Assembly: GCA_038043285.1 (NCBI GenBank) | Contig: JBBTCJ010000007.1 | Span: 21,488 to 85,487, forward strand | DNA length: 64,000 nt | Origin: Planctomycetota bacterium | GTDB taxonomy: Bacteria > Planctomycetota > Phycisphaerae > UBA1845 | Reading direction: 5' to 3' | In this document: piece after piece, positions 9,059 through 48,060 of the stretch | How the letters are laid out: each line of letters begins with the position of its first letter | Position numbering within the stretch: position 1 is the first letter of the stretch | Notes under the pieces: generated by a model | What the model was told of the DNA's origin: nothing | What the model saw: the letters and a program-made list of their open reading frames with translations, nothing else | Database searches by the model: none | Position numbers and translations under genes: made by a program

Positions 9059-9068
9059 GGACAATTGC

Positions 9069-16214: not shown

Positions 16215-16498
16215 GGTTGCCTTTGCCCGGAAAAACGCGGCAGGTCTGACCAGGGCGTCAGATCGACATGGTACGCCGAAGTGCCCCAGTGAGCCATGCC
16301 TTCCGACGTTGCGGGACATGCCGTGGCCGGTAACCCGGGGCGTAAGCGACAGACCCAAACGACTGGCCCCGCGCTGACGCTTGGAGTACGGATCAAGAGC
16401 CTCAATCTCGTCAAGAATGTCACGAACGCGAGTGCCGCAGATCACCGAGCATCGCGGATGCTTTCCAGGCCATCCTTGAGCAGGCGGCGGCTTCGGCG

Positions 16499-17074: not shown

Positions 17075-17082
17075 GCTTCTCC

Positions 17083-17679
17083 TCAGTTCCTTCCCGCGCC
17101 GCGCGGCTGAATGAAAATTGATTTCGCGGGGCACAAATAGGCGCAGACTCCGCAGCCTGCGCAATGCGATTCATGGACCCGCGGCGCGCCGTCGGTGACA
17201 AAGGCGATCGCTTCGGGCTTCAGGGGACAGCGTACCACGCAGTAGTCGCAGGGCTGACCCTGCGTTCGATAGCAGGCGGCCGCGTCGACCACTGCGGTTC
17301 CCATCTCGACCAGCCCCGCAGGCGTCGCAAGAAGTGCTCCCGTTGGGCACGCGGCGATACAGGGCATGTCCTCGCAGAGGTAGCACGGCGCCTCCTCGGG
17401 AATGACCACGGGGGTTCCGGCGACGGGGCCGAACTCGGGTCCGAGTCGTCGGATCGCGGCATGAGGGCAGGCGTTCACGCAGTCGGTGCAACGGGTGCAG
17501 GCGCCCAGGAACCGCTCCTCGACGATGGCGCCCGGCGGCCGCAGCCACCGGCGCTGCGGCGGGTCGTCGGTCGAAGCGGCGGCTTCGCCGACTCGTCCGA
17601 CGGCGCGGATTGAATCCGCCACGCCGTCAAGCATGGTGCGAGTCAGTTCACCGAAGAAATCCCGCCGCGAGCAACCCAC
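17083..17679 (-). CDS. napF: NapF-like 4Fe-4S ferredoxin
   Basis: N-terminal RRDFF twin-Arg-like motif and LRPPGA motif. Four cluster motifs are present: CTRCTDCVNACP, CYLCEDMPCIAACP, CDYCVVRCP and CAGCGVCAYLCP. The layout matches NapF. Confidence 0.65.
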   Translation of the reverse strand: MGCSRRDFFGELTRTMLDGVADSIRAVGRVGEAAASTDDPPQRRWLRPPGAIVEERFLGACTRCTDCVNACPHAAIRRLGPEFGPVAGTPVVIPEEAPCYLCEDMPCIAACPTGALLATPAGLVEMGTAVVDAAACYRTQGQPCDYCVVRCPLKPEAIAFVTDGAPRVHESHCAGCGVCAYLCPAKSIFIQPRGAGRN

Positions 17680-17688
17680 GCTTTTCTC

Positions 17689-19938: not shown

Positions 19939-19961
19939 GTATGCCCCTCCCGTAGGCATCG

Positions 19962-21506
19962 TTACACTGCCGGTTGCAAGGTACGGGTCGGCGACGTCGT
20001 AGAGCGTTCCCTGGCGCGACGGCGCTTCCGTTGAGCCGCTCGTACCGCAATCGCCGCCACCACCACCGCCGCGGCGGCTGCGACCACCAGTGACCCGGCG
20101 GCGCTGGGCTGACCCGCGATCATGACAAAGGGGATCACCTCGATCCGGCCCTCCACCGGCATCGACAGCTCGACCACGTACTCGCCGTCGGTCGGAAAGG
20201 CCACGTGTAGCTTGTACTGATTCTCCACCGCGGTGCGTTCGCTCGGCGGTATGACCAGCACGTTCTCCCCGAAGGTGCTGGTCTGAAGTATGCGAACGGA
20301 GATCGGCTGGGAGTAAACTTGCCTCGTTTCGCGGTCCTTGATGTACAGCGCCAGGTTGGCGGTCTCGCCGGGGACGGGAACGCCCGGAAAGGACGTCAAG
20401 AGCACGTCATACGGTCCGGTCGCGGCGGGATACTCCAGCGTCGGTCGCTGGGGATAATTCTCCTTATACGAATAGTGCGGCAACCCGAGAATATGATGTG
20501 CCCGGGCGGAATCGACCCCAAGCAGCAGGGCAGCCGCAACGCCGATGGCGGCGACCTTGGCGCGTCCGGCGCCAAGCCGCGTGGATTTTTGTCCGGGACG
20601 CGGCGAGGGAAGACCAATGGTGTAATACAGTGCCTGGGTTGGGCAATGACGTATGCAGACGCCACAATTATCACATTCAATGGACGATGACTGAGTGATG
20701 GGGTTGATGCCCTCCTCACAGACGGGGATGCAATCCCTGCAGCCGGTGCAGAGGTCGGCCCTGAGCCTGACGCGAACCGGACGAAGCCAGCCGAGCAGCC
20801 CGTACAAAGCCCCGCCCGGACACATGGTCCGGCACCACCAGCGCGGGGACACCAGCAACTCGAACGCCGCCATCAGTCCCAGCAACGCCAACATGCCGCT
20901 CAGGGTGGTGCCGAAGATCCACGCGTGTGCCGCCCGACTGATGACCGCCGGAGGATAGACGAGGGCGAAGAGCGGTCCGGAGGCGACGGCCGCAACCACC
21001 GCGCCGATGAGCAGAACAACGTACTTGTTGCGATGGGCGAAGCGCAATTCACCCGGTGGAATCTCCGCGAAGCGCAACAGCGCCCGCAGCTTGCCGCCGA
21101 TCTCAAAGAGCAGATACCCTGGGCAAATCCAACTGCAGAAGACCTTTCCCAACAACAGCGCCAAGGCGACGGGAATAGCAATGGAAACCCAAAGCGGCCC
21201 ATAGACGCTCTTTGAGGCCGCGGTCATTTCCAGAGCCGCCAGCGGGTCCGTCCAATTCACCCCGCCGACGCGCATCGACCACAACGTTCCCTTGTTGGAG
21301 TCGAGGAAGGTCTGCGGGTCATCCAGACCGTCAACGTAGGGATGAATACCCTGGGCAAGCGTCGCACTGCACTGACCGGACATCAGTACCGGATCCTCGA
21401 CAATACGTGCGGTTCGATAGTGGGCGTAAAGGCTCAGCATCGGCAGCGCGAACACCAGCAGCAACGTCAGCACCTGAACGCTTCGTCGAAGGAGCTGGAG
21501 GATCAT
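19962..21506 (-). CDS. napH: NapH/MauN-like membrane polyferredoxin with an extra C-terminal domain
   Basis: The ATG at 21506 overlaps the upstream stop (ATGA). TM helices carry CSWICPG and WWCRTMCPGG, followed by CTGCRDCIPVCE and CDNCGVCIRHCP. Then come a TM segment, a roughly 130-aa domain starting HHILGLPHYSY, and a final TM segment. Confidence 0.7.
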   Translation of the reverse strand: MILQLLRRSVQVLTLLLVFALPMLSLYAHYRTARIVEDPVLMSGQCSATLAQGIHPYVDGLDDPQTFLDSNKGTLWSMRVGGVNWTDPLAALEMTAASKSVYGPLWVSIAIPVALALLLGKVFCSWICPGYLLFEIGGKLRALLRFAEIPPGELRFAHRNKYVVLLIGAVVAAVASGPLFALVYPPAVISRAAHAWIFGTTLSGMLALLGLMAAFELLVSPRWWCRTMCPGGALYGLLGWLRPVRVRLRADLCTGCRDCIPVCEEGINPITQSSSIECDNCGVCIRHCPTQALYYTIGLPSPRPGQKSTRLGAGRAKVAAIGVAAALLLGVDSARAHHILGLPHYSYKENYPQRPTLEYPAATGPYDVLLTSFPGVPVPGETANLALYIKDRETRQVYSQPISVRILQTSTFGENVLVIPPSERTAVENQYKLHVAFPTDGEYVVELSMPVEGRIEVIPFVMIAGQPSAAGSLVVAAAAAVVVAAIAVRAAQRKRRRARERSTTSPTRTLQPAV

Positions 21507-22231
21507 GCGGCACTCTCCAGAGGATACACGGGGCGGCGCGTTCGCACGACGCGGATGGCCGGTTCGCCGCGGACCATGGTGCGGCAGATTTCCTCGCACA
21601 TGCCGCAGCCCACGCACGCTTCCAGGTGTACGATGGGGGCGAGGAATTGCCCCGGCTCCAGGGTGATCGCGCGGCCGCGCAACGGGCAGAAGGTGTAGCA
21701 CTCTCCGCAAGGCCCGCGCCGCTCCGCCTCTGCCTCGACCTCCGTCGGATGACGGCCCAGTTGGGTGAGCAATTCCTGCCGCGAGCGCAAATCCCGGGCC
21801 TTGAACGAAAGACACAAGTCTTCACTCAGTTCGACCTTGCCCATATCCACCGCGGTCATGTCGCCGAAGGGAAGGATCGCCCCGGTGGGACAAGCCGGGC
21901 CGCACTTATTGCAAAGCGTACAGCCCGCCTTCGCGGGGTCTACATATGGGGTGTGAAAATACGCACCGTCCCGCTCGGTGTAGAACTGGATGGCGCCCGG
22001 TTCGCAGGCGTCCTGGCAGCGATAGCAGCGAATGCACGCGGCGAAAAACTCCGCTTCGGGCAGCGATCCGGGCGGGCGGAGAATCCCTGCGGCCTTCGCG
22101 TACGGTCGCTTCACCGCGGGGTATTGCACCCACCGTCCGCGCGAAAGCCAATGGGCAATGCCGCCGACGACGAGCATGGCCAGGGTTGTGGCCATCGTGC
22201 CGACGACTTCGCGCCGGGTGGTCGCGGTCAT
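21503..22231 (-). CDS. napG: NapG/MauM-like TAT-signal 4Fe-4S ferredoxin (copy 2)
   Basis: Contains MTATTRREVVG.., LRPPGS, CIRCYRCQDACEP, CTLCNKCGPACP, CGECYTFCP and CVGCGMCEEIC. It has 4-nt ATGA overlaps on both sides. Confidence 0.65.
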   Translation of the reverse strand: MTATTRREVVGTMATTLAMLVVGGIAHWLSRGRWVQYPAVKRPYAKAAGILRPPGSLPEAEFFAACIRCYRCQDACEPGAIQFYTERDGAYFHTPYVDPAKAGCTLCNKCGPACPTGAILPFGDMTAVDMGKVELSEDLCLSFKARDLRSRQELLTQLGRHPTEVEAEAERRGPCGECYTFCPLRGRAITLEPGQFLAPIVHLEACVGCGMCEEICRTMVRGEPAIRVVRTRRPVYPLESAA

Positions 22232-22842
22232 GCGTGCCTCGCTTTCACCCGGACAGCATGGGGGTAGCGAATGCAGGCCCTTTCACATAAACCGCAGCCG
22301 ACGCAGGCATCGGGATTGACGCGGGGGCGCTCGTAGAGGCCGATGAGCATCGCTTCACCCGCGAACGGGCAAGCGCGGTAGCAGGCCCCGCACGTCCAGT
22401 TGTTGTAGGAATAGCACAGGTCGAAGTCCAGTTCGGCGATTCCAATCGCCACCTTGGCCTTGATGTCGTCACGATCCTTGCGCACCAGTTGCAGCGCGCC
22501 CGAGGGGCAAACGGAGGTGCAGCGGAGGAAGTCGCCGTCTGCGCCCATGCACAACATGCAGGCCGCCCGCCGGGGCTGCATGGTCGGAGTGCCCGCGACG
22601 TTTCCGCCGACGGACGTGGGGATGGATTCGAGGGCGTGATTGGGGCAGGCATCGACGCAGCGCATGCAGCGAATGCACGTGGCGGCGAACTGCTCCTCCG
22701 TCAGCGCCCCGGGCGGACGAAGGATCGGGTGGGCGAGCAGCGGCTGATTCTCCATCATGCCGGAGAAATAGGCCGCCCCGCCGATGGTCAACGTGACCGC
22801 GGCGCCTTGTTTGAGAAACTCGCGACGCCCGACGGCTGCCAT
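22228..22842 (-). CDS. napG: NapG/MauM-like TAT-signal 4Fe-4S ferredoxin (copy 1)
   Basis: Contains MAAVGRREFLKQGAAV (twin-Arg), LRPPGA, CIRCMRCVDACP, CMLC..CTSVCP, CGACYRACP and CVGCGLCERAC. It starts 2 nt after the napA-like stop. Confidence 0.65.
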   Translation of the reverse strand: MAAVGRREFLKQGAAVTLTIGGAAYFSGMMENQPLLAHPILRPPGALTEEQFAATCIRCMRCVDACPNHALESIPTSVGGNVAGTPTMQPRRAACMLCMGADGDFLRCTSVCPSGALQLVRKDRDDIKAKVAIGIAELDFDLCYSYNNWTCGACYRACPFAGEAMLIGLYERPRVNPDACVGCGLCERACIRYPHAVRVKARHA

Positions 22843-22844
22843 GC

Positions 22845-25646
22845 TCAGATGACCTCGATCCGGGCCGCAAGCTTTTTATAATCGCACTGCCCGCTGACCG
22901 GATCCCACGCCCGATGGCTGACGGAATTGACCAGCCAGCGGTTCTTCTTCGGGTCGGCGCTATCCGCCACCGACAGGTTCCACGGACTGAACATCAACCC
23001 CGGAGGAACTTCGGAGCGTGCCGGGCGAATCATGCTCTTTTGACCGATCGACGCCCGGGCTTCATACGACCCGCGCCGCGTGACCAGTCGCAGACGCATT
23101 CCGTCCTTGATGCCGAATCGCTTGGCGTCGTCGGCGTTGATTTCGACGTATTGTTCCGGGACGAGCTTCTGCGTCGTGGCTCCGCGAATGGTCTTGGCGC
23201 TATGGAAATGTTCATACACCACGCCCAGCCCCAACCAGAACGGATACACGTTCTGCGTTTTGTGGTCTTCCAGGGTCAGTTTCACGTCGCCGTAGGCGTC
23301 GAGGTGTGGAAGCTCCGGCGGGAGCCCGGCGTTGCGGGCTTCGACGAGAATCTTCGGCTGCCCCGCCAGCGGCCCCTCCGTGTGCATGTCGTCAATGAAG
23401 AACGGTCCCTCGCCGGGGGCGCGTTTGTCGCCGTAGGCCATCAACTTGTCGGTAATCTCCTTGATCCTGGTGTAATCCTGCTCGCAGAGCTTGAACTTGG
23501 CTTTCCCGTCGGGGTGGCGGAACGCTCCATAGGGTTTGCCCGCCCAGCCCTCCTGGCCGAGATAGCGCCTCGGCGTTCCGCCAGCCTTGGCGATCTCGTA
23601 ACTGGGCGCGGGCCATTGAATCCCACGAAGGCTTCGCAACTGATCGTAGGGAGTGACGCCGTCCTTCTCTTCGACCTCCAACAAGCCGGAGAAATCGGCG
23701 TCCGATCCCTTGCCGGCAGCGATGATGTCGCGGAATACCTCCTGCGGATCGTAGGCCATCAGTCCATTGCCCATCTTGATCTTTTTCTGATAGGGGAGAA
23801 TCTTTTCCCCATCCATGCCGAGCTTCTTGGCGAGTACCTTGCATTTGTCGATGGCCATGTCCATGTCCGGTCGGCAGTTCGGCGGCGGATTGACCGTCCC
23901 GTCGCAAATATAGAGCCGCCGCTCGGATTGGATATACGTTCCGCCGGTCCATTCACCCCAGGTGGCTGCCGGGAAAATCACGTCGGCGTAGAGGTTGTTG
24001 GGCGCGTGACGGTAGATGTCTTGCACCACGACGAACATCTTGGTCAGTGCCGGGCGCACCAGCGTGTCCAAGTCGGGCATGTGGACGTGCGTGGTGTACA
24101 TCCAGAACATGGCGTCCAGCCCGCCCTTCAGCGCCCGTTCCATCATTCCCAACACCATGCCGGGATTGGGGAGAACTGAGGTTTGCTGCAAGCGCTCGCG
24201 CGGAACGCGCCAGGCGTCGGCGATGTGGTCGCGCCAGGCGTCGTTGGTCAACGGTTGATTGAAGGGCAGTCGCCCGGTCAGACCGCCCATGAGGCGTTCG
24301 CTCATGGCGTTGGGCTGCCCGGTCTGCGAATGGCTCCCACAACCCGGACGACCGATGTTGCCGGTCAGCAGGTGCAGGTTGATGATGCTGATGGTGTTGT
24401 GCTGACCGTGAAGCATCTGGTTGTACCCGATGCCCCAGAAGGTCAGCACGCCGCCGCGACCGCGCTCGCGTCCGCGGATGGACGCCTCGGCCCACGCCTT
24501 GGCGACGTTCTCCAGGGTCTCCACGGTCACCCGTCCGCAGTCGAGGAGTTTCAACCGCTCGATCACCTGCTCCGGCGCATATCGTTGCAGTACGCCCTCC
24601 TTGTATTCCTTCCACCCGACGGTGTTCTGCTCCAGCCATTCCTCCGGCATGCACGCCTGCGGGTAACGCTTCATCAGGAGGTGCGCAATGGCGTTGAGGT
24701 AGCTGATGTCCCCGTTGAGCGTCGGAATGTGGTAGCTGTTGCGCGGGTTGATGTCTTCCAGCCCGATAACCGTGCCGGTTCGCCGCGGATCCGCCACCGA
24801 GGTCGGAATGTCGTGTTTGGCCTTGTGATCGGCCACCCGCCAGAACAGGATGGGATGCGCCTCGCGAGCGTTGTGACCCCAGAAGGTGATGAAATCCGCC
24901 TCCTCAATGTCCTCGTAACTGGTCGGCGGGGCGTCGGATCCGTAGGAATGGAAGTAGCCGGTCGCGGCGGAGGTCATGCACATCCGGGCGTTGGCCTCGA
25001 TCGAGTTGCTGCCGATGATCCCTTTCATCAGCAGGTTTTCGATCCATTGGGCCTCCATGGTGAGTTGACCCGACCCATTGAGTCCGATGGCATTAGGCCC
25101 CTTGGCCTTGATGATCTCGGCAATGCGTTCGGCCACGAGTTCCTCCGCCTCCTCGTAGGGCGCCTCGCGATAGACCTCGTCGTCAAAGCGTCCCTTGGTC
25201 GCGGAGACGTGCCCCTTGAGCGGATCGCTCGGGTCGCGGCGGATCAGCACCTTGGTGAGTCGATCGCGGTAGATCGGCTCGTGGGCGTTGAGACCCTTGA
25301 TGCACTGAATGCCGCGGTTGGTCGGATGCTTCTTGTCGGGAACCATGCCCACGACCTTGCCGCCCTCGGTCTTGATGAGCGTTCCGCAACCTACGCCGCA
25401 ATAGGGACAGGCGGCCTGGAGAAGCTTCACCTCGGGTGAGAGCTTCTCGTCCCCGCCCGGCGCATTCTGCGCCTGCACGAACTCTTCCGGGAGCATCGAG
25501 GTCGCCGCCACGGCGACGCCGGTGCCGGCGGCCATCTTCATGAACGCGCGCCGATCGAACGGCGCGGAGTGTTTCACCGTCCGGTGGTAGGTGCACGCGG
25601 TAGGTGCCGGCGGAAGGTTGACGACGTTCAGTTTTCGGTCACTCAT
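22845..25646 (-). CDS. napA: TAT-exported molybdopterin oxidoreductase, NapA-like (periplasmic nitrate reductase family)
   Basis: ATG at 25646 with a GGAG RBS. Twin-Arg signal DRRAFMKMAAGTGVAVAA. N-terminal 4Fe-4S motif CPYCGVGCG (CxxCxxxC). NRGIQCIKG and ANARMCMTSAATGY..YEDIEEADFITFWGHNAREAHPILFWRV align with E. coli NapA NRGLNCIKG and [39 protein letters not shown], including the Mo-ligand Cys. At 933 aa it is longer than typical NapA. Confidence 0.75.
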   Translation of the reverse strand: MSDRKLNVVNLPPAPTACTYHRTVKHSAPFDRRAFMKMAAGTGVAVAATSMLPEEFVQAQNAPGGDEKLSPEVKLLQAACPYCGVGCGTLIKTEGGKVVGMVPDKKHPTNRGIQCIKGLNAHEPIYRDRLTKVLIRRDPSDPLKGHVSATKGRFDDEVYREAPYEEAEELVAERIAEIIKAKGPNAIGLNGSGQLTMEAQWIENLLMKGIIGSNSIEANARMCMTSAATGYFHSYGSDAPPTSYEDIEEADFITFWGHNAREAHPILFWRVADHKAKHDIPTSVADPRRTGTVIGLEDINPRNSYHIPTLNGDISYLNAIAHLLMKRYPQACMPEEWLEQNTVGWKEYKEGVLQRYAPEQVIERLKLLDCGRVTVETLENVAKAWAEASIRGRERGRGGVLTFWGIGYNQMLHGQHNTISIINLHLLTGNIGRPGCGSHSQTGQPNAMSERLMGGLTGRLPFNQPLTNDAWRDHIADAWRVPRERLQQTSVLPNPGMVLGMMERALKGGLDAMFWMYTTHVHMPDLDTLVRPALTKMFVVVQDIYRHAPNNLYADVIFPAATWGEWTGGTYIQSERRLYICDGTVNPPPNCRPDMDMAIDKCKVLAKKLGMDGEKILPYQKKIKMGNGLMAYDPQEVFRDIIAAGKGSDADFSGLLEVEEKDGVTPYDQLRSLRGIQWPAPSYEIAKAGGTPRRYLGQEGWAGKPYGAFRHPDGKAKFKLCEQDYTRIKEITDKLMAYGDKRAPGEGPFFIDDMHTEGPLAGQPKILVEARNAGLPPELPHLDAYGDVKLTLEDHKTQNVYPFWLGLGVVYEHFHSAKTIRGATTQKLVPEQYVEINADDAKRFGIKDGMRLRLVTRRGSYEARASIGQKSMIRPARSEVPPGLMFSPWNLSVADSADPKKNRWLVNSVSHRAWDPVSGQCDYKKLAARIEVI

Positions 25647-28635
25647 GGTTTTTCTCCGTACGCGGGGTCGTCGCGGCTGCGACGCTTCCTTCCGCTGGCG
25701 TTTCGCTTCTTGAACTTTCCGTCGAGTCATTCCGCCGATCCGATCCGGCCTGTCGGTCGGCGTCGAATCTCAGGGATCGTTCCGCGGGAAGGGTCAACGG
25801 CGAGGGGACCGCCTTCGCCCAACTGCGGATGTAAGCCACCAGGTCATCGATGTCCTGCGGACCCATGTCGGTCAACCCGTGAGCCCCTTGCCCGAAGGCC
25901 CGCATGGCTGTCCCCGCTCGACCGCGGACGATGGTCGCCTGCAAAAACCCGTCGGTTGCCGCCGAAAGAAATCCATCGTTGTTGAGTTCCGGCGCCCAGG
26001 CCCCCTTGCCCTCGGTTCCGTGACAACCGGCGCAGTTGGAGGCAAACAGCCGCCGCCCCCGCGCCAAGTCCCACGGGATCACGAAGCGATGCGCGATCCG
26101 CGCCGGCTCGACCTTTCCCTGCGGCGGATTGTGCTCCCAGGACCGCAGATGGGCCACCAGGTCGTTGACCTCGTCGCTGGACAGTTCAAGGATCGACTGT
26201 GGGCCGTGCTTGACCGGCCGCATTTCCGTTCCGCTGCGTCCCAGGGCCATCGTGGCCATCAGGAACCCGTCCGAAGCGAAGCGCAGAAATCCGGGGTTGC
26301 CGATGGCCGGCCCGCTCGCCCCCTCGCCCAGGGAACCGTGACATCCGACGCAGTTGTTGGCGTAGAGGGCCGCCCCCTTCTCGGGTCGGCCATGCGGCGA
26401 TTTTGCGACGCGAATCAACTCTCCCTCGCCGGCGCGCTGCAGCAATCGCAGATAGGCGACGAGATCCTCGACCTGCCGCTCGGAAAGCTCGGTAACGCCC
26501 TGCCCGCCCTTGCGGAAGCTGCGCATCGGCGTGCCTTCCTTACCGAAGCTGACCCACTCACGGAGCATGGCGTCGGTGACCAGTTCCAGAAACACCGGGT
26601 TGTTCAACTGCGGACCGGTCGCTCCTTCGCCGTCTGTTCCGTGGCAGGCGGCGCAGTTGCCCGCAAAGAGGCTCCGCCCGGCATCCCAATCGCCCTTGGG
26701 AACCGCCTGTGCGCGCCACTCGGTCGTCTTCGCCGGTTCGCGCTGCCAGGTGCGAACGTACTGGACAATCGAAGCGACGTCCTCGTTGCTCAGATGCCGC
26801 CAGCTCGGCATGCCGGTTCCGGGGCGACCGCGGAGCATCGTGGCCGCCAGGTACTCGTCCGGGACGGCCGTCAGAAACGCCTGCGTGTTCAGCGTCGGGC
26901 CTAGATCGCCCACCCCGCTATCGCCGTGACACGTCACGCAGTTGGCATTGAACAACGTTCGTCCGACCTCCGCCGATACCCCCGCGTTTCCATCCTCACC
27001 ACTTAAGGCGACGGCGCCCGCCTCGTCGCCGCGCGTCGTTTGCCATTGCCGGATGAAGGCGAGAAGATCGCTGAGTTCGCGGACGTCGAATTCCTTCCAG
27101 GCGGGCATGGCCGTGTTCGGCCGACCGTGAACCATCGTGTCGCGGAGAAACGCATCGGACGCCGCCGCGAGGAACGTGGCCGAGTTCAGCGAGTTGCCGA
27201 TTCCGCCCTCGCCGTCCGTTCCATGACACGCCGCGCAGTTGGCCCGATACAGCGCCGCTCCGACGCGGGCGTCGCCGGCATCGGAGGTCACGGATGCAAG
27301 TTCCGGGACCGGGCGATCCCACCCGCGGATGAAGTTCACCAGTAGCGTGATCTCATCGGAGCTGAGTCCGCCCTGTTCGCCCCAGGCGAGCATTTTTGTC
27401 CCCGGACGACCTTTGCTGATAATCGTCCTCAGGTAGTCATCGCTGGCGACGGCGAGCGTTCCGGGATGGTGCAACGACGGGACGACGACGTCCATCTCGC
27501 CGCGGCGCTCCACGACGACGCTCCGTGCGTCCCACTCATGCCCCCACGGGTCGGCATCTCCCGGCCAAAGTCCCGTCCGCATCGTGGTGCCGTATCCATC
27601 CGCTCCGTGGCACGATGAACAGAACATCGAATAGAGCGTCTCGCCCCGCACCACTCCCGGACCGGCCCCGCGATCTTCCGCGTTCGTCGATCCCGTTGAG
27701 GCTACATGCGGGCGAGGAAGGTGACTGGCGGGAGCGCTCTTGCGGTGCAGGCTCATCATATACAAGGCGAGGTCGCGGGCCTGGTCGTCGGAAAGACCCA
27801 TGTCCGGCATCACCGTCCCCGGCGAGACCTCGCGCGGAACCTTGAAATGCTCGAAGAGCCACTGTTCGACGGTATGCTCGCCCTTGACGTGCTTGAAGTC
27901 GAAATCGTGCCGCGTCTTGTCGCCGACGTAGGTCAGGTCGGTCCCCAGCGCGCCGCCGCGACCGCGATACTGGTGACACCCAAGGCACCCCGACTCAACG
28001 ACCAGCCGCTTTCCGCGAGCGAGGCGCTTGCTTCCCGCCAGCGAGCGCGTGAGCGACGCCTGGTCCAGCGACGGCCTGGCCTTCTCTCCCGCGCCCGCGA
28101 ACACGTCCGCCTCGCCGCCGAACAGGTCGTTCTCGTGGTGGCAACGCCCGCAACTGGTGTACACGGCCTGATCGCGAAGCATGGGGGTGTCCACGTGCGG
28201 CATGGTCGATCCGTCCGCCTGCCACCCGTGCGCCGCCTCCCTGCCCACCGCCCGACCCTGACCCTGGTGACAGACCGTGCAGCCGAACTTGTCCACCGGG
28301 TGCTGCCCCAGCAGTTCGCCGGAATGCGCCCGCAGCGGTTGCCCTTCATTCGCCATCGTGGGGTTCTCCACCCCCAGGTGGCACGTCGTGCAGCGGTCGA
28401 TAATCCCTAGTTCGGGGAGATAGATTTGCTGAGGCGCCGCGGCGGCGGCCTTCGCCGACGTACGCGAAGCGGCGTCCGAGGCGTTCCGCTCCAGGGCTTG
28501 GCGATAAGTTTGCTGCGCCGCGCGCCAGTCGCCTCGGAAGTTCTCCTGAAACGCCGCCGCCGCGAGCACCGCCAGCGACGCCAGCGAGCTCACCAGCAGC
28601 ACCGCCTTCATGAGTCGGACTTGTCGTTCACCCAT
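25639..28635 (-). CDS. Membrane-anchored deca-heme c-type cytochrome
   Basis: 998 aa with a GAAGGAA RBS and an N-terminal TM helix. It has ten CxxCH motifs: CTTCH, CTVCH, CGRCH, CLGCH, then six class-I-like units CxxCHG..G.G. Each of those six is followed by a G(T/N)xM(P/L/R) candidate Met-ligand segment. Its 3' end overlaps the napA-like start by 8 nt. Confidence 0.85.
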   Translation of the reverse strand: MGERQVRLMKAVLLVSSLASLAVLAAAAFQENFRGDWRAAQQTYRQALERNASDAASRTSAKAAAAAPQQIYLPELGIIDRCTTCHLGVENPTMANEGQPLRAHSGELLGQHPVDKFGCTVCHQGQGRAVGREAAHGWQADGSTMPHVDTPMLRDQAVYTSCGRCHHENDLFGGEADVFAGAGEKARPSLDQASLTRSLAGSKRLARGKRLVVESGCLGCHQYRGRGGALGTDLTYVGDKTRHDFDFKHVKGEHTVEQWLFEHFKVPREVSPGTVMPDMGLSDDQARDLALYMMSLHRKSAPASHLPRPHVASTGSTNAEDRGAGPGVVRGETLYSMFCSSCHGADGYGTTMRTGLWPGDADPWGHEWDARSVVVERRGEMDVVVPSLHHPGTLAVASDDYLRTIISKGRPGTKMLAWGEQGGLSSDEITLLVNFIRGWDRPVPELASVTSDAGDARVGAALYRANCAACHGTDGEGGIGNSLNSATFLAAASDAFLRDTMVHGRPNTAMPAWKEFDVRELSDLLAFIRQWQTTRGDEAGAVALSGEDGNAGVSAEVGRTLFNANCVTCHGDSGVGDLGPTLNTQAFLTAVPDEYLAATMLRGRPGTGMPSWRHLSNEDVASIVQYVRTWQREPAKTTEWRAQAVPKGDWDAGRSLFAGNCAACHGTDGEGATGPQLNNPVFLELVTDAMLREWVSFGKEGTPMRSFRKGGQGVTELSERQVEDLVAYLRLLQRAGEGELIRVAKSPHGRPEKGAALYANNCVGCHGSLGEGASGPAIGNPGFLRFASDGFLMATMALGRSGTEMRPVKHGPQSILELSSDEVNDLVAHLRSWEHNPPQGKVEPARIAHRFVIPWDLARGRRLFASNCAGCHGTEGKGAWAPELNNDGFLSAATDGFLQATIVRGRAGTAMRAFGQGAHGLTDMGPQDIDDLVAYIRSWAKAVPSPLTLPAERSLRFDADRQAGSDRRNDSTESSRSETPAEGSVAAATTPRTEKNHE

Positions 28636-28716: not shown

Positions 28717-30324
28717 TTAGTGCACCGGCCACGACGCCTGCGACCAGTAAAAGTTCCAGTTCGGTCCGCGATGCACCGTCGCGAAATAGGTCAAAATCAC
28801 AAATCCCACCAAAAAGCAGGTGAACAACGCGATCGCTCCCATCCGCGTCGAGTTCGTCCACTTCACCACCACGATCGACCAGATCGCAAACAACGCCACG
28901 AAGACCGTCCCGGGGTTGAAGAGCGTAATGACGATCTGGGGAACTTCGGCCGTCGCCGCCCAGTTCCGCAGCCAGCCGTAGTTGACCGTGAACGCCAACA
29001 TGCCGATCACCGCCGCCGTGCTGAGCACCAGGCTACCCAACGCCACGCGACGACCCTTTCGCCCGCTGAACCACAACCCGATGTCCTCGCGCTCGCGGTC
29101 CAGGTAAGGAACCAATGCCAAACCGAGCACCACGATCGCCGGGATCCCCACGCCCCCCATAAACGCCGAATACGAAACAAGTTCCTGAAGACCCAGGAAG
29201 TACCACGGCGCCTTGGCCGGGTTCTCCGGAACCGCCGGATTGGCCATCTCCGTTAACGGCGCGTCGTAGAGAACCCCCAAAACCGTCATGAGCAGAACGG
29301 TGATCATCGAGGCGGCCGCCACGACGTACATCACGTTCGGCCAAGTCGGCATCGTGTTCCGCATCTCGCGGTTGACCGCCGGCGTCGTTCCTCGCATGAC
29401 GCCCATCAAACCGTATGTCTTCAGCGGCGAAGGCTTCCCGTCGCCGCTTGTGGAGACGACCGGTTCGCCGATCGAAGCGGCGTCGGCATGGCTCGGCCGG
29501 GCCAATCCCCCGTCCTTGCGAATCCGCCAGAAGTGCAGACCGATGAGGATGGTCATCACCAGCGGCAATACCATCACATGCAGCACGTAGAACCGAATCA
29601 ACGCTTCCTGCCCCACATAGTGCGCGCCGAGCAGCAACTCCTTCTGCATTCGCCCGGGGTCGAAATACGAGGTGATCCCCAGCGCGTCGGTCAACTCCTG
29701 CGGCGATTGGGCGATGTTCGCCCCGATGGTCACCGCCCAGTACGCCAACTGGTCCCACGGCAGCAGATAACCCGTGAAGCTCAGGCCCAGCGTGAGGACG
29801 AACAGGGACATCCCCACCACCCAGTTGAACTGTCTCGGCCGTTTGTACGCCGACGTATAGAACGCCCGGGCCATGTGCAGCATCACGCACGCCACCATCG
29901 CGTGCGCGGCCCATCGGTGCACGTTGCGGATCAATCGACCCGTCGGCACCACGTGCATGATGTCCAGCATGGACGCATACGCTTGATCCACCGACGGCTT
30001 GTAATAGACCATCAACAGAATGCCCGTGACGCAGAGAAGGACAAACAGTACAAACGTGGCCACCCCCAGTCCCAGCGTCGTCGTCGCCTTGATGGCGTGC
30101 AGGTGCGTTCGCGTGGGCAGAATGTGCAGAAAGAAGTTGGTGAACACCGCCTGCGACTTGGCCCGGTCGGAGGTCGGTTTGCCATGGCGGATCAGCGATT
30201 CGCGAAACTCGCTCGGCGTGGTCCGCAGATTTCTAGAAAAGTCCCCGATGGCCCCGGGATCGCCGACGCTGCGCTGCGTGGGTTTGTCCGGACCCGCGGG
30301 TTTTTGGACGCCTGTCTGACTCAT
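28717..30324 (-). CDS. Cytochrome b (fused b6 plus subunit-IV-like, extended)
   Basis: Contains FFLHILPTRTH, RNVHRWAAHAMV..MLHMARAFY, and FTGYLLPWDQLAYWA (the PEWY-region equivalent). 535 aa with many TM helices and a GGGAGAG RBS. Confidence 0.88.
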   Translation of the reverse strand: MSQTGVQKPAGPDKPTQRSVGDPGAIGDFSRNLRTTPSEFRESLIRHGKPTSDRAKSQAVFTNFFLHILPTRTHLHAIKATTTLGLGVATFVLFVLLCVTGILLMVYYKPSVDQAYASMLDIMHVVPTGRLIRNVHRWAAHAMVACVMLHMARAFYTSAYKRPRQFNWVVGMSLFVLTLGLSFTGYLLPWDQLAYWAVTIGANIAQSPQELTDALGITSYFDPGRMQKELLLGAHYVGQEALIRFYVLHVMVLPLVMTILIGLHFWRIRKDGGLARPSHADAASIGEPVVSTSGDGKPSPLKTYGLMGVMRGTTPAVNREMRNTMPTWPNVMYVVAAASMITVLLMTVLGVLYDAPLTEMANPAVPENPAKAPWYFLGLQELVSYSAFMGGVGIPAIVVLGLALVPYLDREREDIGLWFSGRKGRRVALGSLVLSTAAVIGMLAFTVNYGWLRNWAATAEVPQIVITLFNPGTVFVALFAIWSIVVVKWTNSTRMGAIALFTCFLVGFVILTYFATVHRGPNWNFYWSQASWPVH

Positions 30325-30410: not shown

Positions 30411-30908
30411 TCACACGTTGAAGACCGTGTTCGCCTTGACCTCCTTCAGCGTATCCGCCACCAGCCAGCCCTCCGGCGAGACACTCAGCTCGACCCACAC
30501 CAACCCCTTGGGGGCTGGGCCGCCCTTGACCTTTCCCTCCGCGTCAAACACCGACCCATGACACGGGCAGTGAAACGCCCCGTCGGCCCCGCGTTCCGTG
30601 ATGCACCCCAAATGGGTGCACACCGACGAAATCGCATGGAAACCCTTCTCTTCTCGGAACAACCAAAGCCGATGCCTGGCGAAATAGGTCATCGATCCCG
30701 CGATGAATTGCGCGGGCCGACCGAGCTTCACGCGAGAGTTGGACTCCGGAAACACCGAGGGCATCGGCAGCCGCATCGCCCCCAGCATGGCCATCACGAA
30801 AGCCACCACCGCCGACCACGCCGCCGCAATGCCCAGAAAATCGCGCCGCGTCGCCGGTGCACGAAACCGCTCGCTTTCCTCGATCTGCGTATGCAACGGT
30901 CTGGTCAT
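30411..30908 (-). CDS. Rieske 2Fe-2S subunit with a twin-Arg signal anchor
   Basis: Contains TRRDFLGIAAAWSAVVAF and CTHLGC..(15 aa)..CPCHGS, the classic Rieske boxes. Confidence 0.9.
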   Translation of the reverse strand: MTRPLHTQIEESERFRAPATRRDFLGIAAAWSAVVAFVMAMLGAMRLPMPSVFPESNSRVKLGRPAQFIAGSMTYFARHRLWLFREEKGFHAISSVCTHLGCITERGADGAFHCPCHGSVFDAEGKVKGGPAPKGLVWVELSVSPEGWLVADTLKEVKANTVFNV

Positions 30909-30972: not shown

Positions 30973-32883
30973 TCATACTCCCGCCCATTGATCCGTGAAG
31001 CAACAGCGCTCCATGGTGATCGCCCCGACCGGGCAGCGTTCGGCGCACAATGCGCAGCGAATGCACTTCTCCTCGTCCTTGACGATCGCCCCCTGCTCGG
31101 AAAGGTCCGCCTCGCCGTAGCGCCCGACCAGCAACGCCGCAAGTTCCCCGTTGCCTGCCAGGCGGTCGCACGACACCAGCCGAAGACACAGCTCCGGACA
31201 CACGTCCGCGCATCCCCCGCAAAGGATGCACTTCTCCGAGTCAAAGACGGTGTTGACCCCGCAATCCAGGCAGCGACACGCTTCGCGCACCGCGAGGGGT
31301 TCGTCGTACCCGCGCTCGACCACGCTCGTCTGGCTCGCTAGCCGGTCTCCCGCGTTCAACGTTGGAATCGTCGCCCGCGTAAGCTTTTCGTAGTCACGTT
31401 CGCGGCGGAAATCCGGAAGGTTCAGGTGCACCATCTCCGTTCGCGTCGCCTTTCGCTCGCCCGATAGATACGCGTGAATGCTTCGAGCGCACTTCTTCCC
31501 GCTGGCTACCGCGTCGATCAGCAAACGCGCACCGTGGGCCAAGTCGCCCGCGAGAAACACGTCCTTGGCCGACGTCTGCAACGTCTCCGGGTCGCACGTC
31601 AGCAACCCCCGTTGATCGAGCGGCAAGTCGTCGCACCCCGCGGTCAACGACAGATCAGGCTGCTGACCGATCGCCCAGACCACCGTGTCCGCCTCCAGGG
31701 TGACCCGCTGCTTCTCGTCGAATCGCGGCGCGAAGCGGCCGGCCTCGTCGAACACCCCCAGACATCGCTTGAAGGTCACGCCCTTTACGCCGCCGTCGCT
31801 GCCGCGCAGGATCTCCACCGGACCCAGTGACGGATGCAGGCGCACGCCCTCCTCGTGCCCTTCGATGATCTCCACGTCGTCCGCCGGCATCTCGTCCAGG
31901 CTTTCCAAACAGCAGAGGTTCACCTCGCGCACGTTCGATTGCCGCAGCGCGCTGCGCGACACGTCGTATCCCACCTGGCGGATCACCGTGCGCGACACGT
32001 CGTACGCGACGTTGCCCCCTCCCACGACCACCACCCGCTGCCCCAGTTGCAAGAGCGTCGAGCCGGGTCCGCAATGTCTCAGCGATACGTCGCGCAAAAA
32101 CTCCACGCCTCCCAGCACCCCTCGACCCTCGCCGCCTGGAACCGGAACGGTCCGCGATCGCTTCGCTCCGACGGCGATAATCGTGGCTGCGTGGGTCTTG
32201 CGAAGGTCAACCAGGGTCACGTCTTTTCCCACTTGGGTATCACAAATGAACTCCACCCCCAGCGCCCGGATGACCTCGACCTCCGCCCGGATCAACTCGC
32301 GGGGAAGGCGGTACTCGGGGATGCCTACGGCCAACATTCCGGCCGGAACAGGCTCCATTTCGTAGACCACCGGGCGATGCCCCAGCAGGGCCAAATCATG
32401 CGCCGCGGCCAAACCCGCCGGCCCAGATCCGATGATCGCGACCTTCTTCCCGCTGGAACGGATCGGTTTGATCCCATCCAGTACACTCTTCAGCGACTGG
32501 AGTTCCTCTCGACTGCCGCACTCGCGCGGGGAAAAACCCAACACCTTTCGCAGCAGCTCGATGGGCTTCAGTGTTTCCCTGGTGAAGGACTCTGGCCCGA
32601 AGCGATCGGTGACGAAGCGCTTGAGCGCTCGAATGGACACCGGCTGGTCGATCGCCCCGCGCCGGCAAGCCGCCTCGCAGGGTGCCCCGCAGACCCGCCC
32701 GCAGATGCTTGCCAGAGGGTTGGGACCGCGAGCGATCAGGTAGGCCCGCTCAAAGTCTCCCTCCGCAATCGCCCGGACGTACCCTCGCGCGTCGGTGTTG
32801 ACCGGACAGGCGTATTGGCAGCGGATTTGCCGCCGCCAGTAGGCCTCGTCGGGCACTTCCGCGCTGATGGGATCCAAGCTCAT
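30973..32883 (-). CDS. GltD/SudA-like NAD(P)H-dependent FeS flavoprotein with a C-terminal 2x[4Fe-4S] ferredoxin domain
   Basis: N-terminal Cys clusters CQYACPV and CGRVCGAPCEAAC. Dinucleotide folds KVAIIGSGPAGLAAAHDL and VVVVGGGNVAYD. C-terminal motifs CILCGGCADVCP and CIRCALCAERCP. Confidence 0.8.
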   Translation of the reverse strand: MSLDPISAEVPDEAYWRRQIRCQYACPVNTDARGYVRAIAEGDFERAYLIARGPNPLASICGRVCGAPCEAACRRGAIDQPVSIRALKRFVTDRFGPESFTRETLKPIELLRKVLGFSPRECGSREELQSLKSVLDGIKPIRSSGKKVAIIGSGPAGLAAAHDLALLGHRPVVYEMEPVPAGMLAVGIPEYRLPRELIRAEVEVIRALGVEFICDTQVGKDVTLVDLRKTHAATIIAVGAKRSRTVPVPGGEGRGVLGGVEFLRDVSLRHCGPGSTLLQLGQRVVVVGGGNVAYDVSRTVIRQVGYDVSRSALRQSNVREVNLCCLESLDEMPADDVEIIEGHEEGVRLHPSLGPVEILRGSDGGVKGVTFKRCLGVFDEAGRFAPRFDEKQRVTLEADTVVWAIGQQPDLSLTAGCDDLPLDQRGLLTCDPETLQTSAKDVFLAGDLAHGARLLIDAVASGKKCARSIHAYLSGERKATRTEMVHLNLPDFRRERDYEKLTRATIPTLNAGDRLASQTSVVERGYDEPLAVREACRCLDCGVNTVFDSEKCILCGGCADVCPELCLRLVSCDRLAGNGELAALLVGRYGEADLSEQGAIVKDEEKCIRCALCAERCPVGAITMERCCFTDQWAGV

Positions 32884-32944: not shown

Positions 32945-33397
32945 CTACGTCCCCTTCCTCGCCGGCGACTTACCCCGCCTTCGGGGTCGCGTCCCCGCAA
33001 CCGGGGACGGCTCAGCCACGTCGCCGATAGTCATTTCCTTCAGAAAACGCTGTTCGGTCTCAACGACCTTCTTCCAGTGTTCATGGGCCCGACACGGGTT
33101 GGCGTCACTGCAAACGGCGTTCCCAAACGGGCAGCGACGCAGGTCAAATCTTTCAAATGGAGCCAAAACGTCGCAGAGGGCCGTTTTTTCGGGCGGTCGG
33201 CGGAGGCGAAACCCCCCCGTCTTGCCGGGCGACGCATCCAAAACGCCCGCCCGGACCAGATCACCGAGGATTTTCTGGAGGTACTTCGCGGGAATCTTCG
33301 CGCTTCGAGCGATCTCCCGCCCCGGAATCGGCCAACGGTTCTCGTGCTGGGCGAGGAAGATCAAAGCGCGAAGGGCGTATTCGCTGGACAACGTCAT
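32945..33397 (-). CDS. Rrf2-family transcriptional regulator with a putative Fe-S cluster (IscR/NsrR-like)
   Basis: Contains MTLSSEYALRALIFLA and the wHTH segment IPAKYLQKILGDLVRAGVL. The Cys triad is CPFGNAVCSDANPC (Cx6Cx5C). AGGAG RBS. It lies 61 nt upstream of the GltD-like gene on the same strand. Confidence 0.85.
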   Translation of the reverse strand: MTLSSEYALRALIFLAQHENRWPIPGREIARSAKIPAKYLQKILGDLVRAGVLDASPGKTGGFRLRRPPEKTALCDVLAPFERFDLRRCPFGNAVCSDANPCRAHEHWKKVVETEQRFLKEMTIGDVAEPSPVAGTRPRRRGKSPARKGT

Positions 33398-34754: not shown

Positions 34755-35285
34755 TTAGGCTGCTTTCAAGTACTCCCTGAGCTTGGCGCGGAGTCTTCGA
34801 TGTCCGGTTCTTCCGAGCAGTTTCCGCAGTTGATCGCGTTGCACGTCGTCGCGCAGGGCGCTGAGGCGTTGGCTCATGGTCGGCAAGTGCACTTCCACGT
34901 TCGCCTTCCTGGCTTGTGCACCGACGGCGCCCATGCCGTGGTGGGTCAGCAGCAGATGGGCCAGGCCGCACAGGTGGAGGTGTCTCTGGATCGCATCCTT
35001 GCTCAGCACCTGGTCATCGTCCAGCCCCAAGTGGCCCCGCAGATCCTTGAACAGAACCTCAATCGCCCAACGCTTTTCGTATACCGACACGATCTCTCGC
35101 CCCGCCCAACTCGTTTCATTCGTGGCGAAGGCGACCCTCGTCTTCCACAGCGATCCTGGTCGTTTCGAGATCACCAGTCGAACGTCGCCGATGTGTGCCA
35201 ATCGTCCATCGACGGCGGCGATGCGCAGCTTCGCCCGCCCGCGAGCGCGGGGCATGCGCACGTTGTGTCCGGCATACCGAAGCAA
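34755..35285 (-). pseudogene. C-terminal remnant of an IS4/IS701-type DDE transposase
   Basis: Contains the Y-x2-R-x3-E-x6-K signature (VYEKRWAIEVLFKDLRGHLGL) but lacks the N-terminal DD catalytic half. No inverted repeats were recognised. Confidence 0.65.
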
Positions 35286-48038: not shown

Positions 48039-48060
48039 GCAAAAGGGGACGGTCTTTTTC

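Follow-up and report, generated by a model that had tools for sequence, protein, structure and literature searches.

This study concerns a flavoprotein gene in a 64,000-nucleotide (nt) stretch of a Planctomycetota genome (assembly GCA_038043285.1, contig JBBTCJ010000007.1), the whole of which is called the window below. The gene encodes a 636-amino-acid (aa) iron-sulphur (FeS) flavoprotein and lies next to genes for a Rieske protein and a cytochrome b. The flavoprotein is a genetically fixed partner of this b6-type Rieske/cytochrome b (bc) complex, and it tracks the bc module rather than any one terminal enzyme. It is predicted to be a subunit of the complex on the n-side (cytoplasmic side) of the membrane. 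Sequence comparison indicates that the complex of the window and those of anammox bacteria are homologous in all four core subunits and share the same architecture.

Architecture of the flavoprotein

The flavoprotein gene and its parts were located as follows.

30973..32883, minus strand: flavoprotein gene, ATG start, 636 aa (open reading frame (ORF) check); predicted cytoplasmic FeS protein binding flavin adenine dinucleotide (FAD) and nicotinamide adenine dinucleotide (NAD(H)), with a GltD/NfnB fold and a C-terminal 2x[4Fe-4S] domain
32599..32826, minus strand: N-terminal FeS domain, aa 20-95, with Cys 22, 26, 61, 65, 69 and 73 (Pfam Fer4_20)
32413..32430, minus strand: FAD-binding glycine motif GSGPAG, aa 152-157 (motif location)
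32005..32022, minus strand: NAD(P)-binding glycine motif GGGNVA, aa 288-293 (motif location)
31900..31911, minus strand: C-L-E-S, aa 325-328, at the end of beta-2 of the second Rossmann fold (alignment and model)
31000..31275, minus strand: RCLDC pair and 2x[4Fe-4S] ferredoxin domain, aa 537-628 (Pfam, motifs and alignment with the Kuenenia locus L049)

Pfam recognises Fer4_20, the GltD/DPD-type N-terminal FeS domain (aa 20-95, E 6e-19), the Pyr_redox_2 core with its two dinucleotide folds (aa 146-462, E 1e-25) and two Fer4 motifs (aa 546-623, E 9e-11). The C-terminal ferredoxin motifs read CILCGGCADVCP (aa 552-563) and CIRCALCAERCP (aa 607-618). The Cys motifs suffice for about four FeS clusters, beside one FAD site and one pyridine-nucleotide site. 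No transmembrane-like segment was found in the protein (maximum 19-residue Kyte-Doolittle mean 1.50), and no twin-arginine translocation (Tat) or Sec-like signal was seen at its N-terminus. Judged from its sequence, it is soluble and faces the cytoplasm, and its C-terminal 2x[4Fe-4S] domain is predicted to serve for docking and as a wire towards cytochrome b. The initial annotation, a reading of the bare letters, had already described a 636-aa protein with GltD-type N-terminal Cys clusters, a C-terminal 2x[4Fe-4S] domain and no signal peptide, which the ORF, the Pfam matches, the motifs and inspection of the N-terminus bear out; the two dinucleotide-fold motifs that it named, IIGSGPAG and VVGGGNVA, had been read correctly.

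The best NCBIfam model was PRK12771, a GltD-like protein with a C-terminal ferredoxin domain (E 1e-118; 397 bits, under its cut-off of 516). More than 120 full-length homologues were retrieved at 62-75% identity, the named ones from metagenome-assembled genomes (MAGs) of Phycisphaerae or Planctomycetes. With this E value and this number of homologues the feature stands far beyond chance. The closest solved proteins by sequence were the NADPH modules of C. saccharolyticus NfnABC (9bov/9bp5, 303 bits), StnC (8oh5), NfnB, GltD and DPD, and the C-terminal domain separately matched the FwdF polyferredoxin 5t5i. An AlphaFold2 (AF2) model, a monomer without cofactors and of moderate quality (predicted local distance difference test, pLDDT, 67), was used for secondary-structure placement and fold neighbours only; the latter were, in order, 9bov, 8oh5, 9n5u and 5jca, then GltD and DPD. 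We place the flavoprotein in the GltD/NfnB/DPD superfamily, outside every curated family.

Three known identities were considered and rejected. As an ordinary GltD, the protein scored 184.7 bits on TIGR01317 (cut-off 447.7), 193.7 on TIGR01318 (482.95) and 244.1 on TIGR01316 (471.75). GltD has the same fold and N-terminal FeS domain, but it works with a GltB partner, carries Y-R-R at the dinucleotide site and has no extra ferredoxin domain. An NfnB or SudA has about 470 aa and an NfnA or SudB partner, whereas the window protein has 636 aa with the extra 2x[4Fe-4S] domain and is flanked by an Rrf2 regulator and the Rieske gene. With NfnC/NfnA of NfnABC (9bov/9bp5, 9n5u), StnC (8oh5) and NfnB (5jca, 4ylf) the protein does have in common the two-cluster domain at the N-terminus and the Rossmann domains for FAD and NAD(P). 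These modules differ in their soluble complexes, whose NfnA or HydBC-like partners are all missing from the window, in their Y-R-R NADPH site, and in having neither the terminal 2x[4Fe-4S] domain of the window type nor any link to a bc complex. A formate dehydrogenase (Fdh) beta subunit was set aside on the model cut-offs, the lack of a partner and the synteny with Rieske/cytochrome b.

Fold and core sequence, being those of GltD/NfnB/DPD, could also suit an independent soluble enzyme (GltD, NfnB/SudA-type or Fdh beta) merely co-located or co-transcribed with the bc genes, and the automatic names given by JGI include 'formate dehydrogenase (NADP+) beta subunit'. Such an enzyme would sit badly with scores under every curated GltD/GltA cut-off and with the surroundings of the gene: no gltB, nfnA/sudB or fdhA partner was found within the 64-kb window or beside the flavoprotein gene in related loci. 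The next section gives the synteny that bears on it.

Genetic linkage to the Rieske/cytochrome b module

The flavoprotein gene belongs to a cluster whose genes are all on the minus strand.

32945..33397, minus strand: Rrf2-family regulator with C-x6-C-x5-C (Pfam Rrf2, E 2e-27; TIGR00738, 101 bits against a cut-off of 73)
30411..30908, minus strand: Rieske [2Fe-2S] protein with an RRDFLG Tat-type anchor, CTHLGC and CPCHGSVF (Pfam, PDB matches and motifs)
28717..30324, minus strand: fused cytochrome b6 and subunit IV (SUIV), 535 aa (domain, alignment and hydrophobicity analysis)
30124..30126, minus strand: codon of cytochrome b His67, in NFFLH (aligned to Kuenenia His43)
25639..28635, minus strand: membrane-anchored decahaem cytochrome c, 998 aa (domains and CxxCH count)
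22845..25730, minus strand, likely start M29 at 25646: Tat-exported NapA-like enzyme with a molybdenum-bis-pyranopterin guanine dinucleotide (Mo-bisPGD) cofactor (Pfam, PDB matches and motifs)
22228..22842, minus strand: NapG-like periplasmic poly-ferredoxin with Tat motif RREFLK
19962..21815, minus strand: NapH-like membrane ferredoxin, 617 aa (downstream position kept in related loci)
17689..19959, minus strand: second NapH/CcoG-like membrane protein with an N-terminal YHS/TRASH metal-binding domain, 756 aa (membership of the system uncertain)

Intergenic gaps are 61 nt between the Rrf2 and flavoprotein genes, 64 nt between the flavoprotein and Rieske genes, 86 nt between the Rieske and cytochrome b genes and 81 nt between the cytochrome b and cytochrome c genes. 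The cytochrome c gene overlaps the NapA-like gene, which is followed after 2 nt by the NapG-like gene; a further 412 nt lead to the NapH-like gene and 2 nt to the second NapH-like gene. The coordinates agree with the distance of 64 nt from flavoprotein to Rieske gene noted in the initial annotation and with its view of the flavoprotein gene as the first structural gene of the cluster, the upstream neighbour on the same strand being the regulator. By the terminator scan, the flavoprotein and Rieske genes are not separated by a terminator-like site; otherwise the promoter and terminator scan stayed within shuffled expectation.

Related loci, 48 from species-representative genomes and 80 from metagenomes, were then screened by tblastn with the operon proteins of the window, with Kuenenia proteins and with alternative acceptor modules. 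The metagenome scan, run with a 12-sequence alignment (A2), confirmed at least 580 metagenome stretches encoding flavoprotein relatives. A relative was held by 127 of the surveyed loci. Rieske and cytochrome b genes lay inside the fetched flanks in 106 (downstream in 96, upstream in 10); a Rieske gene adjoined the flavoprotein gene before the contig ended in 7, and cbb3 genes stood upstream of it before the contig ended in 4. Eight loci were uninformative, the contig end having been reached. For two distant relatives with different C-termini (L045 and L046, 33% identity), no bc genes were found in the sequence at hand. The flavoprotein was associated with Rieske/cytochrome b, or with accompanying cbb3 genes, in 117 of 117 informative loci (42-77% identity), which are not phylogenetically independent. 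Because all of them keep the pairing while the acceptor module changes, the linkage is not due to chance. The surveyed loci come from MAGs labelled Planctomycetota, Acidobacteriota (including Geothrix and Holophagaceae), Latescibacterota, Eisenbacteria and KSB1; further family members are labelled Nitrospirota and Kiritimatiellia.

The independent enzyme is largely refuted by this synteny, and we regard it as very improbable. The two relatives without bc genes are what the survey offers in its favour; against it, the bc link persists in every informative locus while the terminal enzyme changes. The same linkage, together with the scores under the GltD cut-offs and the lack of gltB in the 64-kb window, sets the flavoprotein apart from ordinary glutamate-synthase small subunits, a distinction that the initial annotation had made its reading depend on.

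Several locus types could be distinguished by their acceptor modules. In the first, flavoprotein, Rieske, cytochrome b and multihaem cytochrome c genes are followed by NapA-like, NapG and NapH genes, as in the window. The second carries downstream a periplasmic type II dimethyl sulphoxide (DMSO) reductase alpha/beta(/gamma) set and a NarJ-like chaperone. One such alpha subunit (L023, set at 15868-21345) reached 1156 bits on TIGR03479, above the cut-off, and another (L067, 15756-21914) is a divergent 1160-aa protein far under all curated cut-offs; the two sets are Nar/Nxr/Ser/Clr-like and of two different kinds behind the same module. In the third type, two dihaem cytochromes c accompany a Tat-type NosZ (819 bits on TIGR04244 in L099, above the cut-off). 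The order there is flavoprotein, Rieske, cytochrome b and hexahaem cytochrome c, then the two dihaem cytochromes c and NosZ (L094, 13953-19189; L099, 10275-15719), and N2O reduction in the organisms behind these metagenome loci appears to be wired via a flavoprotein-bearing bc complex. The Acidobacteriota loci are ordered Rieske, cytochrome b, heptahaem cytochrome c, CcoN, CcoO, flavoprotein, CcoG and CcoI, the last a CcoI-like P-type ATPase. No recognisable acceptor module was found downstream in L116 and L119. Since NapH/CcoG-like genes, which are confined to the Nap and cbb3 locus types, and the acceptors vary by locus, Rieske, cytochrome b and multihaem cytochrome c are the only universal partners. 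The initial annotation had proposed a link to the bc complex and a high-potential acceptor, nitrate, outside anammox metabolism; that reading is supported, although the link is to the bc module and not specifically to nitrate, relatives combining the module with NosZ, cbb3 or Nar/Nxr-like enzymes.

The locus types also bear on the idea that the flavoprotein, instead of acting on cytochrome b, works for membrane polyferredoxins of the NapGH/CcoG type or helps to mature the terminal enzyme, for instance by providing reducing power in the cytoplasm for cofactor or copper handling; it might also be a redox safety valve or sensor for the b haems. The Acidobacteriota flavoprotein gene does adjoin ccoG/ccoI and not the Rieske gene, and NapH-like genes come after the cluster of the window. 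Against such a role, flavoprotein, Rieske and cytochrome b stay together in the type II DMSO reductase, NosZ and acceptor-less loci, which are free of NapH/CcoG-like genes, and the Rieske/cytochrome b/multihaem c set is the sole universal neighbour. We consider this role improbable.

Comparison with the anammox complexes

Kuenenia has two Rieske/cytochrome b complexes, Kuste4569-4574 and Kustd1480-1485, with the putative NAD(P) oxidoreductases Kuste4570 and Kustd1483 (Hauser 2025, PMC12954380). As related in that paper, Kartal et al. proposed that a bifurcated quinol electron reaches NAD(P)+ in these complexes, and de Almeida 2016 reported the co-migration of their subunits. The Rieske potentials are +303 and +335 mV, the latter for Kustd1480, and AlphaFold3 models place an extra haem b at the cytochrome b dimer interface, ligated by His43 of Kuste4571 and followed by four FeS clusters towards FAD (PMC12954380). 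The structural neighbours published for Kuste4570 are NfnABC (9bov/9bp5) and, for the C-terminal domain, FwdF 5t5i (PMC12954380); they coincide with those obtained for the flavoprotein of the window.

Anammox orthologues were found by a search with the Kuste4569 sequence taken from the PDB alignment, and two loci were compared, from Ca. Kuenenia sp. (L049, a stand-in for the kuste4569-4574 type) and Ca. Jettenia (L051). Both are ordered Rieske, 581-aa flavoprotein, cytochrome b, SUIV, multihaem cytochrome c and HAO-like. By BLASTP, the flavoprotein of the window is 35% identical to that of L049 over aa 152-629 (232 bits) and 50% identical over aa 12-93 (98.6 bits), and the two stay collinear as far as the C-terminus, with RCLxC and the pair of ferredoxin motifs included. 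The six-Cys N-terminal pattern is identical (C22/26/61/65/69/73 in the window, C26/30/65/69/73/77 in Kuenenia). In its whole architecture the protein is collinear with a Kuenenia subunit for which co-migration with the bc complex is reported, a further point against an independent enzyme. Identity to L049 is 47% over 245 residues for cytochrome b, 41% for the SUIV part and 34% over the full length for the Rieske protein.

The cluster of the window thus contains a Kuste4570-type flavoprotein, a b6-like cytochrome b with an SUIV-like part, the two being fused, a Rieske protein related to Kuste4569/Kustd1480, and in cytochrome b an n-side His (H67) at the position of Kuste4571 His43, for which haem binding is a prediction only. 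Common to it and Kuste4569-4574 ('R/b-3') are a Rieske gene adjoining that of a flavoprotein of about 580-640 aa with FAD, NAD(P) and four FeS clusters, a multihaem cytochrome c replacing cytochrome f or c1, a high-potential terminal enzyme in the cluster, the C-terminal cluster motifs, and the correspondence of H43 with H67 and of R247 with R269. The differences are numerous. Rieske comes first in Kuenenia and the flavoprotein first in the window; cytochrome b and SUIV are separate in the former and fused with extra helices in the latter; the CxGG haem c_n motif occurs in Kuenenia only; and Y-R-R is found there where the window has L-E-S and a 13-14-residue insertion. Arg511 of Kuste4570 corresponds to Gly557. 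The multihaem subunit has 363 aa in Kuenenia against the 998 aa of the decahaem protein, with weak N-terminal similarity only, and the terminal enzyme is HAO-like there and NapA-like here. The organism of the window, unlike Kuenenia, is not an anammox bacterium. The second complex, Kustd1480-1485 ('R/b-2'), was compared via its Rieske protein 9rk3 only; it shares Ser and Phe in the CPCHGS-x-F box and, as described in PMC12954380, has the homologous NAD(P) oxidoreductase Kustd1483.

The comparison with the anammox bc-associated oxidoreductases, which the initial annotation had put forward as a check, was positive for all four core subunits. The phylogenetic side of that check gave sequence homology but not a sister-group placement. 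In a rough neighbour-joining (NJ) tree (414 core columns, no support values), the Kuenenia flavoprotein falls in the same broad 'terminal-ferredoxin' radiation as the window clade, and the anammox flavoproteins are not sister to that clade. The flavoprotein of the window scores 311 bits to the Kuenenia protein against 303 bits to NfnC of 9bov, and the Kuenenia protein would rank about 119th among the 50%-identity representatives of 19,206 superfamily matches. Because of this tree and of the near-equal bit scores, we claim homology and shared architecture, not orthology or a sister relationship.

Rieske, cytochrome b, multihaem cytochrome c and terminal enzyme

The best PDB matches of the Rieske protein, aligned over the whole soluble domain, were Kuste4569 (9rk4, 68.9 bits) and Kustd1480 (9rk3, 63.4 bits); every b6f and bc1 Rieske scored less (at most 54.8 bits). 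Ser119 is kept in CPCHGS and Phe121 is as in Kustd1480, and the Rieske centre is probably high-potential.

The cytochrome b consists of a b6-like four-helix part fused to an SUIV-like part, with haem ligands H136/H150/H249/H264 and the Qo-type motif APWY. An insertion of about 65 residues (aa 424-488, window 28860-29055) adds two further hydrophobic segments; it occurs neither in the Kuenenia SUIV nor in the Acidobacteriota cytochromes b. No haem c_n Cys (CxGG) was found in the cytochrome b of the window, Kuenenia WCMGG aligning with LGLGV, and this Cys is missing in 84 of the 85 loci that could be parsed, Kuenenia L049 being the sole exception. H67 aligns with His43 of the Kuenenia cytochrome b and R269 with Arg247. 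Both H67 and a second His, H74, are kept in at least 95% of 33 aligned cytochromes b of the family, Acidobacteriota included. No solved cytochrome b aligned across the N-terminal H67 motif, the best stretches beginning at residue 71 or beyond. H67 may be the ligand of an extra n-side haem b.

The described traits of cytochrome b subfamily G and its clade G' are similar. Subfamily G genes co-occur 'in many other cases' with genes for large NAD(P)-binding Cys-rich oxidoreductases, long members lack CxGG, and the long cytochromes b of clade G' lie in 'large conserved operons ... of an unknown function' (Dibrova 2017, PMC5600118). By these traits only, the long cytochrome b without CxGG, the large conserved operon and the NAD(P)-binding FeS partner of the window resemble that group, and membership of subfamily G or clade G' is a lead only. 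The present analysis differs from PMC5600118 in its survey of acceptor modules and its residue-level comparison.

The decahaem cytochrome c has an N-terminal anchor, four CxxCH in its N-terminal part and then six tandem class I cytochrome c domains. Its relatives paired with other acceptors have six to eight haems only, and the class I repeats seem to differ in number from one acceptor module to another.

The Mo enzyme (961 aa) contains the Pfam domains Molybdop_Fe4S4, Molybdopterin and Molydop_binding, a Tat motif RRAFMK at aa 60 and the Mo-ligand motif NARMCMTSA (aa 247-255), which aligns with NPRLCMASA of NapA. It thus has the Mo-bisPGD domains, N-terminal 4Fe-4S site, Tat signal and Cys Mo ligand in R-x-C-M-x-S of a NapA. 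Its best PDB matches are all NapA, from D. desulfuricans (243 bits), then E. coli, C. necator and R. sphaeroides; its scores are far under the NapA cut-offs (309 against 904 bits on NF010055, 290 against 931 bits on TIGR01706). Nitrate is its likely substrate. No NapB-like dihaem gene was found in the cluster, where the decahaem cytochrome c stands in its place. Formate dehydrogenases generally have a His after the selenocysteine or Cys ligand. The NCBIfam Fdh-alpha score of the Mo enzyme is near its NapA score, yet Met follows the Mo-ligand Cys and the PDB matches are all NapA, and a formate dehydrogenase was judged less likely.

Read as its longest ORF, the gene of the Mo enzyme extends about 90 nt into the end of the cytochrome c gene (25644-25730). 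A later start is suggested by an ATG at 25646 (M29) and by the place of the Tat motif (aa 60); the gene would then share only a few bases with the cytochrome c stop, as would be consistent with translational coupling.

The nap cluster of Caldithrix abyssi is comparable, with a Rieske/cytochrome b pair beside NapA, NapG and NapH and without NapB or NapC; the path proposed there runs from quinol via Rieske/cytochrome b and a multihaem cytochrome c to NapA (Kublanov 2017, PMC5317091). As described, it differs in having no reported flavoprotein and a tetrahaem NapM instead of a decahaem cytochrome c.

The dinucleotide site

At the end of beta-2 in a Rossmann fold, an acidic residue as a rule goes with NADH and a pair of Arg with NADPH. 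Y-R-R followed by T, S or G stands after beta-2 of the second Rossmann fold in Kuenenia and in 5/5 solved relatives, including the NADP(H)-bound NfnI. When this NADPH-type site was looked for in the flavoprotein of the window, C-L-E-S was found instead, after a 13-14-residue insertion, and the AF2 model places L-E-S directly at the end of beta-2. Across the survey, counts by crude regular expressions, which left about 25-30 loci unparsed, gave x-L-E in 97 parsed loci and Y-R-R only in L039, L045 and the anammox loci. Because L-E-S replaces Y-R-R at this position, NADH is suggested to be likelier than NADPH for the protein of the window. Of the NAD(P)H-linked cofactor in the initial annotation, the pyridine-nucleotide site is thus retained and the NADPH option weakened.

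One divergent relative (L039, 3537-14131; 40% identity), from a MAG that is labelled Rickettsiales and may be mis-binned, retains Y-R-R together with YLGG, without Cys, at the c_n position. Rieske, cytochrome b, cytochrome c and NapA-like genes still come after its flavoprotein gene, and it seems to stand between the anammox and window types.

Direction of electron flow

The standard potentials at issue are +430 mV for nitrate/nitrite, -74 mV for menaquinone and -320 mV for NAD+. The predicted topology has the Rieske head, cytochrome c, NapA-like and NapG-like proteins in the periplasm and the flavoprotein in the cytoplasm. We favour, holding it about as probable as not, a quinol-bifurcating, acceptor-dependent menaquinol:NAD+ oxidoreductase. 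Here the C-terminal 2x[4Fe-4S] domain would dock on the n-side of the cytochrome b dimer, and an extra haem b, held by His67 of each monomer, would bridge haem b_N to the FeS chain and then FAD. Menaquinol would be oxidised at the Qo site. One electron would run downhill via the Rieske protein and the decahaem cytochrome c and reach the NapA-like reductase in the periplasm, whose substrate is probably nitrate, and the second would be driven uphill through b_P, b_N, the extra haem b, four FeS clusters and FAD to NAD+. The NADH formed could be used in biosynthesis. It could also be re-oxidised by complex I, and more protons would then be gained when menaquinol is oxidised by acceptors of very high potential, a possible rationale for the complex in heterotrophs.

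Such a wire would be reversible in principle, and the same architecture could work with the opposite flow. The flavoprotein would then be an NADH-oxidising entry module of a hard-wired NADH:acceptor unit, an NDH-2-like input joined to a Q-cycle, with electrons passing from NADH through FAD, FeS and the extra haem b to b_N and Q_N, or straight into the b-haem chain. Here L-E-S in place of Y-R-R would be the classical signature for NADH, the catabolic carrier, and transfer from NADH (-320 mV) to b_N and menaquinone (-74 mV) would be downhill. The carriers are labelled Phycisphaerae, Holophagaceae/Geothrix, Latescibacterota and others, lineages mostly described as heterotrophs. FNR on the chloroplast b6f complex, thought to feed the n-side in cyclic electron flow, offers an analogy, and a cytochrome b with a cytoplasmic oxidoreductase as ancestral 'membrane-anchored dehydrogenase' has been discussed (PMC5600118). 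However, NADH input would not need the combination of a high-potential-type Rieske protein, with Ser kept, and the presumed menaquinone; it leaves unexplained the restriction to very high-potential acceptors among the sampled loci, and the homologous anammox complexes are thought to run towards NAD(P)+. We consider the entry module possible but somewhat unlikely.

The bifurcating direction is preferred for three reasons: the Rieske Ser, which raises the potential, and Phe are kept as in the +335 mV Kustd1480; all identified acceptor modules are very high-potential, as bifurcation needs; and the n-side of cytochrome b is changed, with c_n lost and the extra His conserved. Several points weigh against it. 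Bifurcation to NAD(P)+ is itself a hypothesis in Kuenenia and is carried over here by homology, while the near-equal bit scores to NfnC and the NJ tree loosen the tie to the anammox flavoproteins. The cytochrome b of the window is without the haem c_n Cys present in the Kuenenia models, and Arg511 of Kuste4570, replaced by Gly, is modelled near the extra haem. The Mo enzyme being under the curated NapA cut-off, nitrate is a likely but uncertain acceptor. Heterotrophs, as the carrier lineages are mostly described, have no obvious need for reverse electron flow, and an NADH-type site would suit NADH oxidation equally well.

Neighbouring genes

An Rrf2 gene recurs upstream in many related loci, which suggests FeS-, NO- or redox-dependent control of the cluster. 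Downstream, a hemerythrin-domain protein is encoded at 16499-17164 (minus strand), and a homologue stands just upstream of the flavoprotein gene in another locus (L021, 1995-2510); the protein may sense or buffer O2 or NO in connection with the system. The two NapH/CcoG-like proteins (617 and 756 aa) are unusually long for membrane ferredoxins; they may handle a metal (copper?) or form a second route linked to quinol.

About 1.9 kb upstream of the cluster, between threonine-aldolase-like and glycoside-hydrolase-130 genes, lies a truncated DDE transposase fragment (34755-35285, minus strand) that matches the C-terminal part only of the DDE_Tnp_1 profile. Long ORFs (370-980 aa) without a Pfam match at E <= 1e-5 were found at 418-3360, 3643-4794, 5268-6380, 7811-9091 and 48035-49330, all on the minus strand. 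In this DNA of 64% G+C, some may be spurious and others lineage-specific planctomycete proteins.

Significance

Flavoprotein-bearing Rieske/cytochrome b complexes are known from anammox bacteria: as PMC12954380 and PMC5600118 relate, their description dates from 2011-2013, the demonstration of co-migration from 2016 and the modelling from 2025. Within the limited literature searched, we found no publication on the non-anammox flavoprotein-bc clusters themselves, on exchangeable Nap, type II DMSO reductase, NosZ and cbb3 modules with flavoprotein-bc, on a His43 equivalent kept outside anammox or on the split between L-E-S and Y-R-R. These four features appear to be new; the co-occurrence outside anammox had already been remarked (PMC5600118).

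Anammox bacteria are slow-growing enrichment organisms without genetics, in which bifurcation is hard to test. Quinol bifurcation to NAD(P)H in their Rieske/cytochrome b complexes has been an open question since 2013, and the homologous complexes common outside anammox make it movable to possibly culturable organisms with simple acceptors (nitrate, N2O and O2). Many genes now automatically annotated as 'glutamate synthase beta subunit-like', 'formate dehydrogenase beta subunit' or 'FAD-dependent oxidoreductase' become candidate subunits of complex III, and a conserved His of cytochrome b is flagged as a possible holder of a third b-type haem. For the carrier lineages, it is suggested that Nap, Nos and Nar-like denitrification modules are wired to the NAD(H) pool via complex III.

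As a tentative and rather doubtful extension, we propose a modular 'NAD-loop' complex spread among menaquinone users in several phyla. It would be a Rieske/cytochrome b complex carrying an NADH-type flavoprotein and an extra haem b on the n-side, in which menaquinol would be bifurcated to NAD+ and to an exchangeable acceptor module of very high potential (NapA-like, Nar/Nxr-like, NosZ or cbb3), with complex I re-oxidising the NADH. If true, this loop would move more charge per electron than a normal Q cycle and regain the large amount of energy otherwise lost in the drop from menaquinol to nitrate, N2O or O2; the anammox complexes would then represent one specialised, NADPH-producing branch of a broader class.

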